Sequence record: PX880102.1
Strand: one strand, 5' to 3'
DNA from: a phage
Length of the DNA stretch: 64,000 nt
In this document: positions 25,935 to 34,991 of the stretch, one piece after another
Layout: each line of letters starts with the position of its first letter
How positions within the stretch are numbered: the first letter of the stretch is position 1
The notes under the pieces: model-generated
Database searches by the model: none
What the model saw: the letters and a program-made list of their open reading frames with translations, nothing else
Told to the model about the DNA's origin: nothing
Program-made: the position numbers and the translations under genes

Positions 25935-25987
25935 CCTCATGTTATGTCAGTAAGACTACTATAACACAACACGAGGGACTTGTAAAC
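25935..25987 (-). promoter_or_regulatory. Early-type promoter (GTTTAC -35, TATAGT -10) plus leader with GAGGA Shine-Dalgarno; copy A of repeated cassette
   Basis: Minus strand GTTTAC-18 nt-TATAGT, then leader ending in GAGGA before ATG at 25926. Confidence 0.6.
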
Positions 25988-28044
25988 TACATCTTGAACT
26001 TTTTAGACATTCCGTTGATGTTAACCAGAGAAGCCAAGATTTGAGAAACTTCGTTTTCCTCTTCTTTTGATTCTTCTACAAGGAATTGATTAAACCCAGC
26101 CATTGGACGAACTTCACCAGTTTCCATTAGATGATCGCCATCATATACTGATTCTTCTAATTGTTCAGAAGGAGGAACGATTGTGCCTTCGATTAGATAC
26201 TTGTTATAAGCAGTTTCTTTCATCATGTACGTGCTTACTTTATTAATCTTCAACAAAATTCCACGCGGTAGAATAACTTCAGCTTCTGATGGAAATCCTG
26301 ATAAATGACCTGGAACGATAACTTTGATTCGCTCAGCCCCTTTAATTACCATACCTACACTAGTTTCAGCATCTTCATTAGCATATGTAGAATGACTACC
26401 CATATGCATTAAATCTTCGGCATCAACGGAACCTTCTCCTTCACCAGAAAATACTGCACCGGAATCATCTAGAGCCATATAGTTTTTACCATGCTCACCG
26501 AAGATATTTGGTTTAAGCGATGTTGATACGAAGTTCTTGAAATAGAACATTTTATTTTCAATATTATGGCGTAAAGTTTTAAAAGTAACTTCTTGACCAC
26601 GATAAAGCGTAGTTCCCGGAGGAAGAACTGATCCTTTGGCGAATGCAGAATCCATTGTCTCGATGTGTTTAATAGCTCGTTCCATGTATTCTTCACGGGT
26701 AGAATCTGGTTTACCCAAGAGGAACGAGTTCATTTCAACATATGAATCTGCACAATAATCTTCAATTGCATCAGACTCAGCCTGAGTCAGTCCTTTTGGA
26801 GTTACTTCGGTGCTTGCGTATTCATATGCCTGAGCAGCAGATTCATTAATCAATTTATAAATGCCATTCATGACAAATTGAATAATAGCTACCTTTTCGT
26901 CTGGTGTGGCTTTAGAACCTTTAACTAAATCATTGATAATTTTCTTAATAACATCAAAGCTATTAGAAATATTAATGTCAGCGAGATCGCTTAAAATTTT
27001 ATCGGTTTTATAATCAAAGAATTCTTTATTCTTTAAATATTCTTGAGAACCTTGATGTGTTATATCGCTCTGCAGTCTGATAGACGGATCACGTAAACGT
27101 GCATGGGCCAATGCAATATGATTTCGGAAGCTTTCTAGTTCATAATCGTTAGATTTAAAACGAGAAGCACTTCTCATACCACCGATAGCTCCTTTGCCGA
27201 AGTTTGAACCAATCTGAATAACGCCAGAGTTCATTGGTCCTTCTGCTTTATATACCGGAACTTTAGATTCAAACTCTTGATATTTCTTAGCAGCGAAGCT
27301 ATCACCCTGTAGCGAAGCATCGACAGTAGAATATTGAGCTTGTGCTGCTAATCGACGACTAATTTTAGTTTTCTGAATAACAGCTTGATCCGTGCGCTTA
27401 TCATTTTCTAAAGCAATAGAAGCAGCAACAGCAACAGCTTTAGGAACAGCATTACCTGTTTTAACATCTACATAAACATCACCAACCTTTGATTCAACTT
27501 TTGTGAATAACTCAGTTGAAATAGGAGGTACACCTGGAATGTCTTCTAAATTGGCATTTTTACGGTAAACCATAATATATGCATACTTTTTATCGTAATC
27601 CCAGATTTCCTTTAAAAGAACATATCGACCTACTCCTTTAGTACGTACTAAACGGTCAGCAATAACTTGCATTTGACGAGCAGCGCCATTTGTTTTACTC
27701 TTTAGTACGCGGAATAGGCATGCGTCAATTTTATACTGTTTCATTGTTTGAAGAGCAGTATCAAAAACTGCATTAATGACACCAATTGGATTTCCACCCA
27801 AGTTTTTAAGTTTAACTAATGATAGTTTCTCATTAACACCTATCATTACGATATGCATCATTTTATCGCCTGGCTTAACGTTTTTATTTGTATCACCGCC
27901 AGAGGTGTATGTACAAAATCTAAATCCAGGAAGCACGCTTTCTTCACCGGCTTGAATAGCAAAAATTTGAGGTATTTTATGCTTAGGATTTAAGTTAACA
28001 ACCGGCGCCGAAGCGCCGTCAAATAATTCTGTAATAAGTTCCAT
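25987..28044 (-). CDS. Alt-family ADP-ribosyltransferase paralog (685 aa)
   Basis: N-terminus MELITELFD and first ~230 aa closely similar to neighbouring Alt; C-terminal R-S-E motifs YRGQ / FVSTSL / EAEVILPRG. Confidence 0.8.
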   Translation of the reverse strand: MELITELFDGASAPVVNLNPKHKIPQIFAIQAGEESVLPGFRFCTYTSGGDTNKNVKPGDKMMHIVMIGVNEKLSLVKLKNLGGNPIGVINAVFDTALQTMKQYKIDACLFRVLKSKTNGAARQMQVIADRLVRTKGVGRYVLLKEIWDYDKKYAYIMVYRKNANLEDIPGVPPISTELFTKVESKVGDVYVDVKTGNAVPKAVAVAASIALENDKRTDQAVIQKTKISRRLAAQAQYSTVDASLQGDSFAAKKYQEFESKVPVYKAEGPMNSGVIQIGSNFGKGAIGGMRSASRFKSNDYELESFRNHIALAHARLRDPSIRLQSDITHQGSQEYLKNKEFFDYKTDKILSDLADINISNSFDVIKKIINDLVKGSKATPDEKVAIIQFVMNGIYKLINESAAQAYEYASTEVTPKGLTQAESDAIEDYCADSYVEMNSFLLGKPDSTREEYMERAIKHIETMDSAFAKGSVLPPGTTLYRGQEVTFKTLRHNIENKMFYFKNFVSTSLKPNIFGEHGKNYMALDDSGAVFSGEGEGSVDAEDLMHMGSHSTYANEDAETSVGMVIKGAERIKVIVPGHLSGFPSEAEVILPRGILLKINKVSTYMMKETAYNKYLIEGTIVPPSEQLEESVYDGDHLMETGEVRPMAGFNQFLVEESKEEENEVSQILASLVNINGMSKKFKM

Positions 28045-28047
28045 GAT

Positions 28048-30144
28048 TTATCCTTGAACGAACTTGTAAGGCATGTTTGCAATATCTATGCAAGATGCAA
28101 TAATTCCAAGAGATGATTCTACTTTTTGTTTAACATTTGATGAAACAAATGATGCAAAATCAACTCTGTCTTCTATTTCAATATCACCTGTCATTGCAAC
28201 TACTTCACCGGTTTCCATTAAATGGTCTCCGTCATAGATTACCGATTCGGTGAGCTCTTCCGTGGTCATAACTTCAGCTTGAATGAGTTTTGTATTATTA
28301 GATGTTGTTCCGTCATTATTAGAAGCATCAGTTATTTTATTAACTTTGACCATCAATCCACGCGGTAGAATAACTTCAGCTTCTGTTGCTATTCCGAGAC
28401 TTCCTGGATATACAACATTAACTTTATGAGCTCCATCAATTGCCCATCCTATTTGAACTTTAACGTATTCAGGATTTTCTTTATACGCTCTTATTTCGTT
28501 TGGATTAATAGTTATTCCTTCTTCATTTTTATCAACTGTTAATTCATTGCGAGCTTCTGGTTCTAAAAGACCAATACCAGCATGTGTGATTCCAAAACGT
28601 CCAAAAATGATAGGAGTTAAAGAAGTAGATACAAAATTTCTGAAGTAGAACACTTTATTTTTAACTAACGCTTCATATATAGGAGCAGTCATACTTTGAG
28701 CACGATAAACTGTAATGCCTTCTGGTATACGGTCACCATTTTCAAAAGCTGAATCTAAGTTATTTATAGCAGATTCAATTTCTTTTTCACTCATTACATC
28801 ATATCGTTCTGGATTGTAACGACCTAAAAGAAGATTATTGATGTCAGTATATCCTGAACCGCAATATTCTCTAATGCCGCGCTTTTGTGATGGAGTATAT
28901 TTAGAACCATCACGGGCAATAGTAATATCAATCATTGGACCTGCACCAATTCCAGAAAAGCTATAAATCATTCGTTTGAGGAATTTAGTTTTTGCTGCGT
29001 TCCAGGAATTTTTAGTTATTTCTTCCCAGACTTCATCTGGCTGTCCTTTACGTGTTTTATTATGTTTATCAAGCCAATTATCTTTATATTCTTCAAAGAG
29101 TTGATTAACAGCTGCTGCGTATTTTTCTAAACATTTTATTGAAGTAGTTGGTTCATTTTTAATCGCATTAAGAATTACATCTTTAATTTTTTCAGAAACT
29201 TCACCAACCTCACTCATTGGAAAGAATTTATAGTCATAATGAAGTTCATCTGCAGTTCCTTCAGCAATAATTTTTGCTGCCTTAGTTTTAGAAGCCAATG
29301 AATTAATTCCAAGTTTCATTTCTTCCGCTTCGGGAATTAAAGGAGCTGTAGCAGGTTTATTGAAATTAGCTGCGGTAGATTCATACTTCTGGAATAATTC
29401 ACTTTCAAATCTAGAAGATTCCAATGACTGACTTTGTGCAATTGCTCTACGGGAAATTTTAACTTTAACGATTACAGCTTGGTCAGAACGTTTATCGTTT
29501 TCTTGTGCAATAGATGCTGCAATTGCCTCATTTTTAGTTACTTGAGCTCCGGTATCTTTATTGATATAAACATCACCGACCTTCGATTCAACTTTAGTAA
29601 AGAGCTCTGTACTAATTTCCGGAACTCCTGGAATGTCTTCTAATGATACATTTTTGCGATGTATAAGAATATATGCGTACTTTTTATCGTAATCCCAGAG
29701 TTCCTTAAGAAGGACGTATCTGCCACCTGAACGACTACGGATAAGTCTATCAGCAATAAGTTGAATTTGACGAGCTTGACCAGCAGTTTTAGACTTAAGA
29801 ATACGGAGCATACAGGCATCAATTTTATACTGACGCATCGTCTGCATCGCAACAGTAAAAACTGAATTGATGTAATTAATTGGGCTTGGACCGAGACCTT
29901 TTAATTTAGCAATTGAACCTTTAGCAGTTAATGTAAAAGGAACAATATGCATCATTTTATCACCCATTTTTAAATCGCGATTAGTATCACCTCCAGATGT
30001 ATAGGTACATAAACGAAAGCCTGGTTGTTCAATTGCGTCATCAACATGAACTGAAAAAATTTGCGGTATTTTCTTCTTTGGATTTAAGTTTGTAATCGGA
30101 AGAGTAGTATCTTCGTCAAATAATTCTGTAATGAGTTCCATCAT
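28048..30144 (-). CDS. alt: Alt ADP-ribosyltransferase (698 aa), packaged head protein
   Basis: Alt-like sequence with YRAQ / FVSTSL / EAEVILPRG motifs; late promoter and Shine-Dalgarno directly upstream; adjacent to ligase gene. Confidence 0.8.
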   Translation of the reverse strand: MMELITELFDEDTTLPITNLNPKKKIPQIFSVHVDDAIEQPGFRLCTYTSGGDTNRDLKMGDKMMHIVPFTLTAKGSIAKLKGLGPSPINYINSVFTVAMQTMRQYKIDACMLRILKSKTAGQARQIQLIADRLIRSRSGGRYVLLKELWDYDKKYAYILIHRKNVSLEDIPGVPEISTELFTKVESKVGDVYINKDTGAQVTKNEAIAASIAQENDKRSDQAVIVKVKISRRAIAQSQSLESSRFESELFQKYESTAANFNKPATAPLIPEAEEMKLGINSLASKTKAAKIIAEGTADELHYDYKFFPMSEVGEVSEKIKDVILNAIKNEPTTSIKCLEKYAAAVNQLFEEYKDNWLDKHNKTRKGQPDEVWEEITKNSWNAAKTKFLKRMIYSFSGIGAGPMIDITIARDGSKYTPSQKRGIREYCGSGYTDINNLLLGRYNPERYDVMSEKEIESAINNLDSAFENGDRIPEGITVYRAQSMTAPIYEALVKNKVFYFRNFVSTSLTPIIFGRFGITHAGIGLLEPEARNELTVDKNEEGITINPNEIRAYKENPEYVKVQIGWAIDGAHKVNVVYPGSLGIATEAEVILPRGLMVKVNKITDASNNDGTTSNNTKLIQAEVMTTEELTESVIYDGDHLMETGEVVAMTGDIEIEDRVDFASFVSSNVKQKVESSLGIIASCIDIANMPYKFVQG

Positions 30145-30177: not shown

Positions 30178-30195
30178 AAAGGCCCGAAGGCCTTT
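30178..30195 (-). terminator. Hairpin terminator between the 62 aa ORF and the alt late promoter
   Basis: AAA-GGCC-CGAA-GGCC-TTT palindromic hairpin flanked by A/T runs. Confidence 0.55.
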
Positions 30196-30382
30196 AATAA
30201 TCTATTGGTAAGAGAGTACGGTATATTTCAAACTTTGGACCTTTTTCATAGGCATCAAATGTTTCTGTGAATTTATTATAAGCATATGCATCTATAAATT
30301 CAATCATAATTTGTGATACAGAAGTAGAAACATCTCCACCTTCTTTTTGAGCAACGACAATTGTTTCTAAGTAAGCTTTCAT
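30194..30382 (-). CDS. Small hypothetical protein (62 aa) between ligase and alt
   Basis: ORF overlapping ligase stop by ATGA, followed by hairpin terminator. Confidence 0.45.
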   Translation of the reverse strand: MKAYLETIVVAQKEGGDVSTSVSQIMIEFIDAYAYNKFTETFDAYEKGPKFEIYRTLLPIDY

Positions 30383-31839: not shown

Positions 31840-32105
31840 TGTTCATCCTTTAGAGTTTGGTTTACAACTCTATTATAAATCAATTCATCATTAAGCTCAG
31901 TCAAAGACCTGTGGTACGTGGTTCTAACTTTATTTCCTTGCATCCAGTGCTTGACGTAAATGAAACCTTGCTCTACACATTTTTTAAAAATTCGTTCGTC
32001 TTTTTGAGCTCGGAATTCTGGATTGCATCTAAAAAATTGATTTACGTGACCGTAATCACGTGTAGTATTACCTTCATTTTCATAAATAGTGTGAACAACA
32101 AACAT
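31836..32105 (-). CDS. Small hypothetical protein (89 aa), first of the 30.x series
   Basis: ORF with overlapping stop/start in operon-like array. Confidence 0.5.
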   Translation of the reverse strand: MFVVHTIYENEGNTTRDYGHVNQFFRCNPEFRAQKDERIFKKCVEQGFIYVKHWMQGNKVRTTYHRSLTELNDELIYNRVVNQTLKDEQ

Positions 32106-32941
32106 TAGAATGCTCCTTGGAAAATATTATCACCACTAGTAGGTCTATTATACAAATACTCTATGCCACCGGGTTTAATATAGTTCCATGTCTGAAATGG
32201 ATGTGTCTGATATGGATGATATAGATTATAAGGATTAAATCCAGGAGTTCTCCAGGTAGTGTTCCAAGGAAAAGAATCGTTTTTAACCATCTTCTCAATT
32301 ACATCTTTTATAGCTTTTTCACTATCAAAACTTTCTTTATTTTCCTTCGGTGAAAAAAGCTTATTCTCTACATCATTCCATGTATAAACTCGCTGAGCAG
32401 TTTTTGGAATATTGTCACGTTCCCCTCGAGCCATCCAATAAACAGGAACACTTAATATTTCACTCGCATGATCGCAGTGATGAGCGAGATCGTCGATATA
32501 ACAAATTACGTTATATTTCTCTTTTGCCTTTTTGAACAACTCTTCTTTTGAAGAATCATGACCACACATCATTACTTCCGAGAAGGCACCAGGAAAAAGA
32601 GCATTCAAATTAAATTGACGATTCAGCAGAGCGTCAATAGAATCACCCAATGCTGTAACAGCAACAAAATTATAATCTTCTTTTAATTTGTTAATTACAC
32701 ACAGAGCATCTTTATACGGAGACAAGTAACGAATAAAATCTGAACGATTGTATTTTTCAATTAACTTGACACCAAGTTCTTCATCACAATTAAAGAGTTT
32801 ACCAGGAGAAATAAATTTCTCATCCTGGATCATTTTTAAAATATGTTCTAACGGAAGATTATATTTCTGAGCAAAATAAGGAAGGCCTGATTGCCAGCTT
32901 AAACATACTCCATCAATATCAGTTAAAATAGTAGGCTTCAT
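32105..32941 (-). CDS. HAD-superfamily hydrolase-like protein (278 aa)
   Basis: N-terminal HAD motif I LTDIDGV; overlapping start/stop with neighbours. Confidence 0.55.
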   Translation of the reverse strand: MKPTILTDIDGVCLSWQSGLPYFAQKYNLPLEHILKMIQDEKFISPGKLFNCDEELGVKLIEKYNRSDFIRYLSPYKDALCVINKLKEDYNFVAVTALGDSIDALLNRQFNLNALFPGAFSEVMMCGHDSSKEELFKKAKEKYNVICYIDDLAHHCDHASEILSVPVYWMARGERDNIPKTAQRVYTWNDVENKLFSPKENKESFDSEKAIKDVIEKMVKNDSFPWNTTWRTPGFNPYNLYHPYQTHPFQTWNYIKPGGIEYLYNRPTSGDNIFQGAF

Positions 32942-33402
32942 AAAGAGTCTCTTAATAGGTTTAACACATCAATAAATTCAGCTTCGGTTAGTATTGTATC
33001 ATCTTTTGTTAGACCACTAGCCATGCTATGCTTCAAAACTTTTCCTTTCGAGGCTTGTAATGCATCACGAAAGCCCTTGTTTTGGATCGCTGCTTCAAAA
33101 TATGCATTTGTGTATAATTCTTTCCACGCCGGGGAGTATCTTGAAAATGGAACTCCAAGCCAGAAGAGGGTCCCACGGTCCTGAGCTCTAGCATAAGACC
33201 TTCCAGCTTGTTGGGCGGCAAGCCCGGATAACCCAAATATACGACGTTGTTGTTCAACGTTTTTCACCTTGCACCCTTGGAGGAATCCTTCAAGACCTCC
33301 AAATTGAATACCATCCATAACGAAAGGCCAATGGGCGAAATTACTTAATGCACATGATGGCCACCTAAAATTACTTCTAATCTCTAACTCAGACATTTTC
33401 AA
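32938..33402 (-). CDS. NADAR / YbiA-like (DUF1768) domain protein (154 aa)
   Basis: Signature SNFAHWPFVMDG...LEGFLQGCK resembles E. coli YbiA FSNFAAWPIKVDG...SEHYFQAQK. Confidence 0.6.
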   Translation of the reverse strand: MKMSELEIRSNFRWPSCALSNFAHWPFVMDGIQFGGLEGFLQGCKVKNVEQQRRIFGLSGLAAQQAGRSYARAQDRGTLFWLGVPFSRYSPAWKELYTNAYFEAAIQNKGFRDALQASKGKVLKHSMASGLTKDDTILTEAEFIDVLNLLRDSL

Positions 33403-34548: not shown

Positions 34549-34881
34549 TTATTTTACTACTTTCCAGTGCTGCATGTCAAGTTTACCAACTTTTTTCATC
34601 TTCTCAATTAAGCGTTCGGCGCGTTGGCGAGCTGTAACATAATACCATTCACCCAATTCATTTTGTTCAATTTTTCCAACGATTACTGTGTTCAATTCAT
34701 AAATCCAACCAGTAAAGAAATTATGAACTTGAATTGTAAAGGTGAAATCTGTTCCCATACCTTCTGTTGTTTCTACTTCAATAATATCACCTTCAACTGC
34801 CATTAAGAACCACATAGTTTCATCATATTTACCGTTGAAGCATTTAGTTTTAACTGCAGCGTTCAGATTAATCGTTTTCAT
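34549..34881 (-). CDS. Hypothetical protein (110 aa)
   Basis: ORF preceded by early-type promoter (GTTTAC -35) and terminator. Confidence 0.5.
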   Translation of the reverse strand: MKTINLNAAVKTKCFNGKYDETMWFLMAVEGDIIEVETTEGMGTDFTFTIQVHNFFTGWIYELNTVIVGKIEQNELGEWYYVTARQRAERLIEKMKKVGKLDMQHWKVVK

Positions 34882-34960: not shown

Positions 34961-34986
34961 ATAAAAAAGGACTCCCGAAGGAGTCC
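34961..34986 (-). terminator. Rho-independent terminator downstream of the basic small ORF
   Basis: Minus strand GGACTCC-TTCG-GGAGTCC then TTTTTTATTTT. Confidence 0.75.
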
Positions 34987-34991
34987 TCAAC

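Follow-up and report, generated by a model that had tools for sequence, protein, structure and literature searches.

A phage orthologue of T4 gene 30.3, very probably encoding the NADAR-fold anti-DarT1 enzyme AdfN

Gene 30.3 and the surrounding genes

The DNA analysed here, referred to as the window, is a 64,000-nt stretch from a phage (sequence record PX880102.1). On its minus strand, positions 32938..33396 contain an intact and full-length coding sequence of 152 aa plus stop, which was assigned to gene 30.3 (adfN) by its match to PF08010 and by orthology to phage T4. In the list of open reading frames, the longest reading of 30.3 covers 32938..33402 (minus strand, 154 aa) with a TTG start, and its translation includes SNFAHWPFVMDG...LEGFLQGCK. 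The initial annotation had reported this 154-aa frame together with the motif; the quoted sequence proved to be exact, but the start did not hold. The TTG start was rejected because the T4 annotation and the overlap between an ATG and the stop codon of the preceding gene favour the ATG at 33396. This ATG is more likely the real start, giving 152 aa, and the two additional N-terminal residues of the longer version are due to the longest-ORF rule. In the T4 record, 30.3 is a CDS of 459 nt that starts at exactly the ATG corresponding to 33396.

At both ends the gene overlaps its neighbours. The start of adfN and the stop of 30.4 overlap at 33389..33396 on the minus strand (ATG at 33396..33394, 30.4 TGA at 33391..33389, within AATGTCTGA), which suggests translational coupling of the two genes. 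The stop of adfN overlaps the start of gene 30.2 in an ATGA at 32938..32941 (minus strand), as seen in the ORF table and in the T4 alignment (TCTTTATGAAGCCT); the same ATGA overlap is present in T4.

The encoded protein is identical to T4 gp30.3 (NP_049816) at 150 of 152 residues (99%), the only differences being Q22H and I125M. At the DNA level the window and T4 30.3 align without gaps and differ at 10 of 459 nt, 8 of these changes being synonymous. With T4 gp30.3/AdfN (NADAR_BPT4, PF08010; UniRef name 'Anti-DarT factor NADAR') the window protein furthermore shares length, start context, gene order and the overlaps with 30.4 and 30.2, as well as E36, K43, H123 and the C-terminal helix. Exactly the same protein is found as gp30.3 of T6 (Q859M7, Q859M7_BPT6) and in vB_EcoM_Shinka, there called 'NADAR domain containing protein', and public databases contain it on 52 contigs, T6 included. 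In hmmscan against Pfam, PF08010 (Phage_30_3) matched with an E value of 7.7e-70 and 233.5 bits (cut-off 36) over profile positions 1-138 of 138, and near-identical DNA occurs in 654 phage records, mainly of Tequatrovirus. Judged by these two sequence comparisons, 30.3 is certainly a genuine gene and not a chance ORF. The window ORF is the orthologue of T4 gene 30.3, which has already been published and named adfN, and hence is not new. The value of the assignment lies in annotation, as an experimentally characterised counter-defence enzyme is still mostly labelled 'hypothetical protein' in the 654 records; in PHROGs, gp30.3 belongs to phrog_652, 'unknown function'.

The gene order of the window is as in T4: two alt-like genes, alt.1, ligase (30), 30.1, 30.2, 30.3, 30.4, 30.5, 30.6, 30.7 and 30.8, with 30.1 (DUF3045), 30.7, 30.8 and the ligase gene identified among the neighbours. 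The position of 30.3 between 30.4 and 30.2, upstream of the ligase gene, is common to T4, RB69 and T4-like contigs from IMG/VR. When the neighbourhoods of 80 IMG/VR homologues were inspected, 30.2 and ligase adjoined adfN only in T4-like relatives, where this held for identities as low as 42-49%, and no family-wide partner gene of gp30.3 was seen. Homologues with about 40% identity, some of them on contigs of 250-424 kb, had no window neighbour within 4 kb.

Gene 30.2 (32105..32941, minus strand) encodes a protein of 278 aa that begins MKPTILTDIDGV and has an N-terminal DxDGV (HAD-type DxDG) motif. One UniRef entry names gp30.2 a haloacid dehalogenase-like hydrolase, in PHROGs the protein falls into phrog_420, 'unknown function', and no sequence match was obtained in Pfam, NCBIfam, PADLOC or the PDB. 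The DxDGV motif and the UniRef name, on which this reading is based, suggest that gp30.2 is a HAD hydrolase. The 90%-identity protein cluster that contains gp30.3 (32941..33396) has a gp30.2 sequence of 279 aa as its representative, and its 1386 members mix both proteins. This mixture probably explains a homology search that returned no full-length match at 99-100%. Given the ATGA overlap of the two genes, the database members of the mixed cluster may include a fused 30.3-30.2 read-through.

Further downstream lie two tandem genes for Alt-like ADP-ribosyltransferases at 25987..28044 and 28048..30144 (both minus strand; PF03496; 685 and 698 aa); their products share 41% identity. T4 has, in the part of its record that was retrieved, a single alt, located directly downstream of alt.1. 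In the window, alt.1 (30194..30382, minus strand, 62 aa; 'conserved hypothetical protein' in T4) matched the Pfam family PF24647, 'Phage blade protein', with an E value of 7.5e-29.

An overlapping ORF that is annotated in T4 as 30.3' corresponds to 33033..33260 (minus strand), inside adfN but in another frame, and matched DUF2883 with an E value of 9.9e-52. The ATG with which it starts in T4 is removed in the window by one synonymous DNA change, ATG to ACG, which alters the N46 codon of 30.3 from AAT to AAC. In 14 close relatives the ORF starts variously with ATG, ACG, ATT or ATC; 13 of them keep the frame open, and the remaining one (L013) has an in-frame stop. 30.3' was rejected as a real feature on account of the lost ATG, the varying start, the in-frame stop and the drift of its residues while 30.3 is conserved, and seems to be an artefact of annotation, not a conserved gene.

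NADAR fold and active-site residues of gp30.3

Direct searches gave no link to NADAR proteins. The window protein had no match to PF08719 (NADAR) in hmmscan against Pfam, even at E<=10, phmmer against PDB sequences returned no NADAR and only a chance match (E 0.62), and none of the PADLOC and NCBIfam models matched gp30.3. The family profile, hhalign and the structure were therefore needed for the NADAR link. BLASTP against E. coli YbiA, run as a single comparison, gave 19 identities in 57 positions (E 1e-5), confined to the N-terminal motif, where SNFAHWPFVMDG..LEGFLQGCK of the window stands opposite SNFAAWPIKVDG..SEHYFQAQK of YbiA. The motif had been described as closely resembling the core of YbiA; the resemblance is real, though less close than that. 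With a family profile built from 58 sequences, hmmsearch of the PDB found YbiA (2b3w) as the best match (E 0.004), and hhalign aligned the profile to YbiA over 90 columns with 93% probability and an E value of 3.3e-7. Moreover, 21 of the 58 family members themselves match PF08719, the best with an E value of 1.5e-7.

Structure prediction, one of the checks proposed initially, independently confirmed the NADAR fold: the AlphaFold2 model based on the family alignment was confident (pLDDT 93.4, pTM 0.89), and the fold search with Foldseek identified it as NADAR. Thus the fold, the profile-profile comparison and the catalytic residues all make gp30.3 a NADAR, and the relationship is solid. The Pfam model has a limited reach, which accounts for the missing direct match to PF08719; such a match is no defining biological trait.

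The NADAR motif E-x3-Q-x2-K contains the catalytic Glu and Lys (E43 and K50 in P. nicotianae, E88 and K95 in E. coli C7). In the window protein this motif is EGFLQGCK (33268..33291, minus strand), with the catalytic E36 and the phosphate-binding K43 aligning to YbiA E48 and K55. The N-terminal NADAR signature ALSNFAHWPF, residues 16-25 (33322..33351, minus strand), aligns to FSNFAAWPI of YbiA. Schuller et al. 2023 (PMC11543638) provide the mechanistic framework of a catalytic Glu/Lys pair plus a last-strand residue. NADAR subfamilies are defined by the last-strand residue, which is Glu in YbiA, Asp in the NADARs linked to DarT1 and His in phage gp30.3 (PMC11125620, PMC11543638). The last-strand His of phage gp30.3-type NADARs is H123 here (codon at 33028..33030, minus strand). 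It lies in strand 120-123 of the AlphaFold2 model; the hhalign alignment stops at K122, paired with YbiA V124, which leaves H123 one column past its end, opposite YbiA E125. The C-terminal helix, residues 138-151 (32944..32985, minus strand), was modelled by AlphaFold2 with high confidence and is missing in RB69.

E36, K43 and H123 are invariant in the window protein and in 79 full-length viral homologues from IMG/VR contigs. Counted by position, E36 and K43 are present in 81/81 sequences and H123 in all 80 of the 80 that cover it. P13, L17, S18, N19, F20, F25, G37, Q40, Q50, G58, A61 and G65 are also invariant, as are T134, L136, T137 and F141 wherever the sequences cover them. Position 22 (H in the window), within the conserved SNFAxWPF motif, varies between P, K, A, Q and H; position 125 is M in 34 sequences and I in another 34, with M in every close relative sampled. 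Among the more distant homologues, nine loci on IMG/VR contigs of 248-424 kb (L019, L020, L030, L039, L046, L051, L065, L078 and L081) encode His-type NADARs with about 40% identity. As NADARs with the invariant His occur on jumbo-phage-sized contigs, the His-type subfamily reaches well beyond Tevenvirinae.

Published function of AdfN and state of the window allele

Johannesman et al. (Nat Commun 2025, PMC11825919) mapped the DarTG1 resistance of T2 and T4 to 30.3 by means of RB69 chimeras and renamed the gene adfN. After deletion of adfN, T4 and T2 no longer formed plaques on DarTG1 cells, and ectopic adfN-T4 fully rescued RB69, 30.3 being both necessary and sufficient for the resistance of T4 and T2 to DarTG1 (PMC11825919). 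Purified AdfN-T4 strips ADP-ribose from DarT1-modified DNA, which the E36A variant does not; the protein shows no binding to DarT1 and no effect on DarTG2 (PMC11825919). T4 AdfN is impaired by E36A, by K43A and by C-terminal truncation (PMC11825919). As an independent result, phage gp30.3 protein was reported in Toxins 2024 to hydrolyse guanine-ADPr, not thymine-ADPr (PMC11125620). In a transposon screen (HIDEN-SEQ preprint, bioRxiv 10.1101/2025.11.20.689424), insertions in 30.3/adfN were dispensable on K-12 and lost specifically on DarTG1 hosts.

Two functional proposals of the initial annotation, a NADAR-fold hydrolase cleaving ADP-ribose off guanine and a phage factor directed against DarT, are thus borne out, the former by the activity of the 99%-identical T4 gp30.3 (PMC11825919, PMC11125620) and the latter by the AdfN phenotype of T4 (PMC11825919; bioRxiv 10.1101/2025.11.20.689424). 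Among the experiments it had suggested, deletion from the phage has a strongly positive outcome for T4 and T2, which become sensitive to DarTG1 (PMC11825919), and the de-ADP-ribosylation assay is positive for the T4 protein on DNA (PMC11825919, PMC11125620). Rescue of uninfected E. coli from DarT1, by contrast, was negative for AdfN-T4 in two papers, the toxin not being neutralised in such cells (PMC11825919, PMC11125620). If the missing PF08719 match and the missing DarT1 rescue had been taken literally, a correct NADAR idea could have been wrongly rejected; the true function was nevertheless recoverable from motif resemblance alone.

T5 and Bas25 were rescued only weakly by the T4 protein (PMC11825919, PMC11125620). 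Full activity of AdfN-T4 is seen only in T-even infection, for which a T-even 'potentiating factor' has been postulated by the authors (PMC11825919). Given the failure in uninfected cells and the weak rescue of T5 and Bas25, to picture AdfN simply as a free-standing antitoxin would be incomplete.

With high confidence we regard the window gene as adfN, coding for a stand-alone NADAR-fold, guanine-specific DNA ADP-ribosylglycohydrolase that acts against DarT1. Orthology, intact frame, fold and conservation of the catalytic residues come from the present analysis, whereas activity and phenotype were published for the T4 protein, which is 99% identical; we infer that the window allele, which equals the T6 allele, behaves like T4 AdfN. 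In the proposed mechanism, DarT1 of a host DarTG1 system would ADP-ribosylate guanines in the replicating phage DNA, and AdfN would hydrolyse the guanine-ADP-ribose bond, so that phage replication could proceed. Catalysis would depend on H123 of the last strand and on E36 and K43 of EGFLQGCK, the latter two making the contacts to ribose and phosphate. AdfN would leave the toxin itself unbound and would act on guanine adducts only, and would thus not counter the thymine-modifying DarTG2; its full activity would be reached only in T-even infection.

RB69 provides a natural loss-of-function allele for comparison. Its gp30.3 is encoded at the same locus and is 95% identical over residues 1-137. 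In the RB69 record, however, the 30.3 CDS has 414 nt (137 aa), as an extra T after ...ACTAAC makes a TGA; this 1-nt insertion after codon 137 (nt 411) removes the last 15 residues and is found in RB69 only. [quoted passage not shown] Unlike the truncated gp30.3 of RB69, the window allele is intact: it is without an insertion of this type, and helix 138-151 is kept, as shown by the gap-free alignment with T4. For these reasons, and since T6 with exactly the same allele is resistant, adfN of the window is predicted to be functional. An allele as inactive as that of RB69 is extremely improbable; there are two substitutions relative to T4, Q22H even within a conserved motif, but both positions 22 and 125 vary naturally, the frame runs to full length and retains the C-terminal helix, every catalytic residue is present, and the same protein occurs on 52 contigs including the DarTG1-resistant T6 (PMC11825919). 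Intactness of the allele predicts the growth of T-even phages on DarTG1 hosts, on which RB69 with its 1-nt insertion cannot grow.

Other readings, related systems and the T-even requirement

The same fold could serve other purposes, and the resemblance to E. coli YbiA ('N-glycosidase YbiA'), with which gp30.3 has the fold and the N-terminal motif in common, might point to a housekeeping N-glycosidase that clears reactive riboflavin-pathway intermediates. There is hardly any probability left for such a role, given that the last-strand Glu by which the YbiA subfamily is defined is invariantly replaced by His, that gp30.3-type NADARs group closest to the DarT1-linked ones and not to YbiA in the published phylogeny (PMC11825919), and that the phenotype is DarTG1-specific (PMC11825919, bioRxiv 10.1101/2025.11.20.689424). 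YbiA itself (PDB 2b3w, PF08719, an N-glycosidase for riboflavin intermediates) is about 20% identical to gp30.3 over the structural alignment, has E125 at the last strand where the window protein has H123, and differs in its physiological role. Comparative genomics had, before any experiment, predicted for phage NADARs in general that they mainly degrade soluble immune signals or by-products derived from ADP-ribose rather than DNA adducts (PMC9503650), and distant members on jumbo-phage-sized contigs with other gene contexts would fit this prediction. For gp30.3 we consider it very unlikely to be the main function; de-ADP-ribosylation of DNA has been directly shown for the T4 protein in agreement with the phage phenotype (PMC11825919, PMC11125620), and no soluble substrate has been reported, although the protein may have a secondary activity of that kind.

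The initial annotation had also offered regulation of the phage's own Alt, for which no support was found beyond the proximity to Alt-like genes and shared early expression. In its broader form, gp30.3 would regulate or reverse the phage ADP-ribosyltransferases Alt, ModA and ModB, for instance by de-ADP-ribosylating their protein or RNA targets. In favour of this, the two tandem Alt-like genes (PF03496) share the strand of adfN and follow it at a distance of about 3-7 kb downstream, early expression is common to adfN and the alt genes (PMC9503650), and AdfN-T4 reaches full activity only in T-even infection (PMC11825919). Against this stand the activities of all tested NADARs, that of gp30.3 included, which are directed to guanine-ADPr in DNA (PMC11825919, PMC11125620, PMC11543638), whereas the T4 record annotates the target of Alt as a protein, the host RNA polymerase. 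Furthermore, the deletion phenotype is DarTG1-specific and the gene non-essential on plain K-12 (PMC11825919, bioRxiv 10.1101/2025.11.20.689424), distant homologues of the gp30.3 family sit in quite different gene contexts, and no experiment speaks for a role in Alt regulation, to which we give a slightly smaller chance than to the soluble-signal function. Removal of ADP-ribose from guanines of phage DNA is thus the reading we retain for gp30.3.

Compared with DarG1 (BC4488 subfamily; G. lovleyi NADAR, PDB 8bat; E. coli C7 NADAR), the window gene is an orphan without an adjacent darT: none was found beside gp30.3, which has 30.4 and 30.2 as neighbours, PADLOC reported nothing for gp30.3 or gp30.2, and the nearby ADP-ribosyltransferases are of the Alt type (PF03496). 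DarG1 has Asp at the last strand where the window protein has His123, and comprises 219 aa including an N-terminal extension, which is lacking in the window protein of 152 aa. In contrast to DarG1, T4 AdfN does not neutralise DarT1 in uninfected cells (PMC11825919, PMC11125620). AdfN-Bas32 and AdfN-Bas60, from T5-like and Vequintavirinae phages, are likewise phage-encoded orphan NADARs with guanine-specific anti-DarTG1 activity, but they belong to other NADAR clades and were independently acquired (PMC11825919). Both are active in uninfected cells and for unrelated phages, whereas the T4-type protein is not (PMC11825919).

It is doubtful, with a chance somewhat above that of the alternatives discussed so far, that the T-even potentiating factor postulated for T4-type AdfN is encoded in the packed transcription unit of adfN, where the HAD-like gp30.2 would be the leading candidate. 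A related and likewise doubtful idea is that AdfN has a second substrate made by the tandem Alt-like ADP-ribosyltransferases of the phage. As to the transcription unit itself, a candidate sigma-70-type early promoter (TTGACA-18-TAAAAT, 11/12) is located at 34551..34580 on the minus strand, between 30.8 and 30.7; the total of promoter-like sites in the region was no higher than in shuffled sequences, and the site is thus a candidate only. A terminator-like GC-rich hairpin followed by a T-run was found at 34967..34988 (minus strand), just upstream of 30.8. Together, the candidate promoter and the terminator-like hairpin would define an early unit running from 30.7 to adfN, 30.2, 30.1 and the ligase gene.
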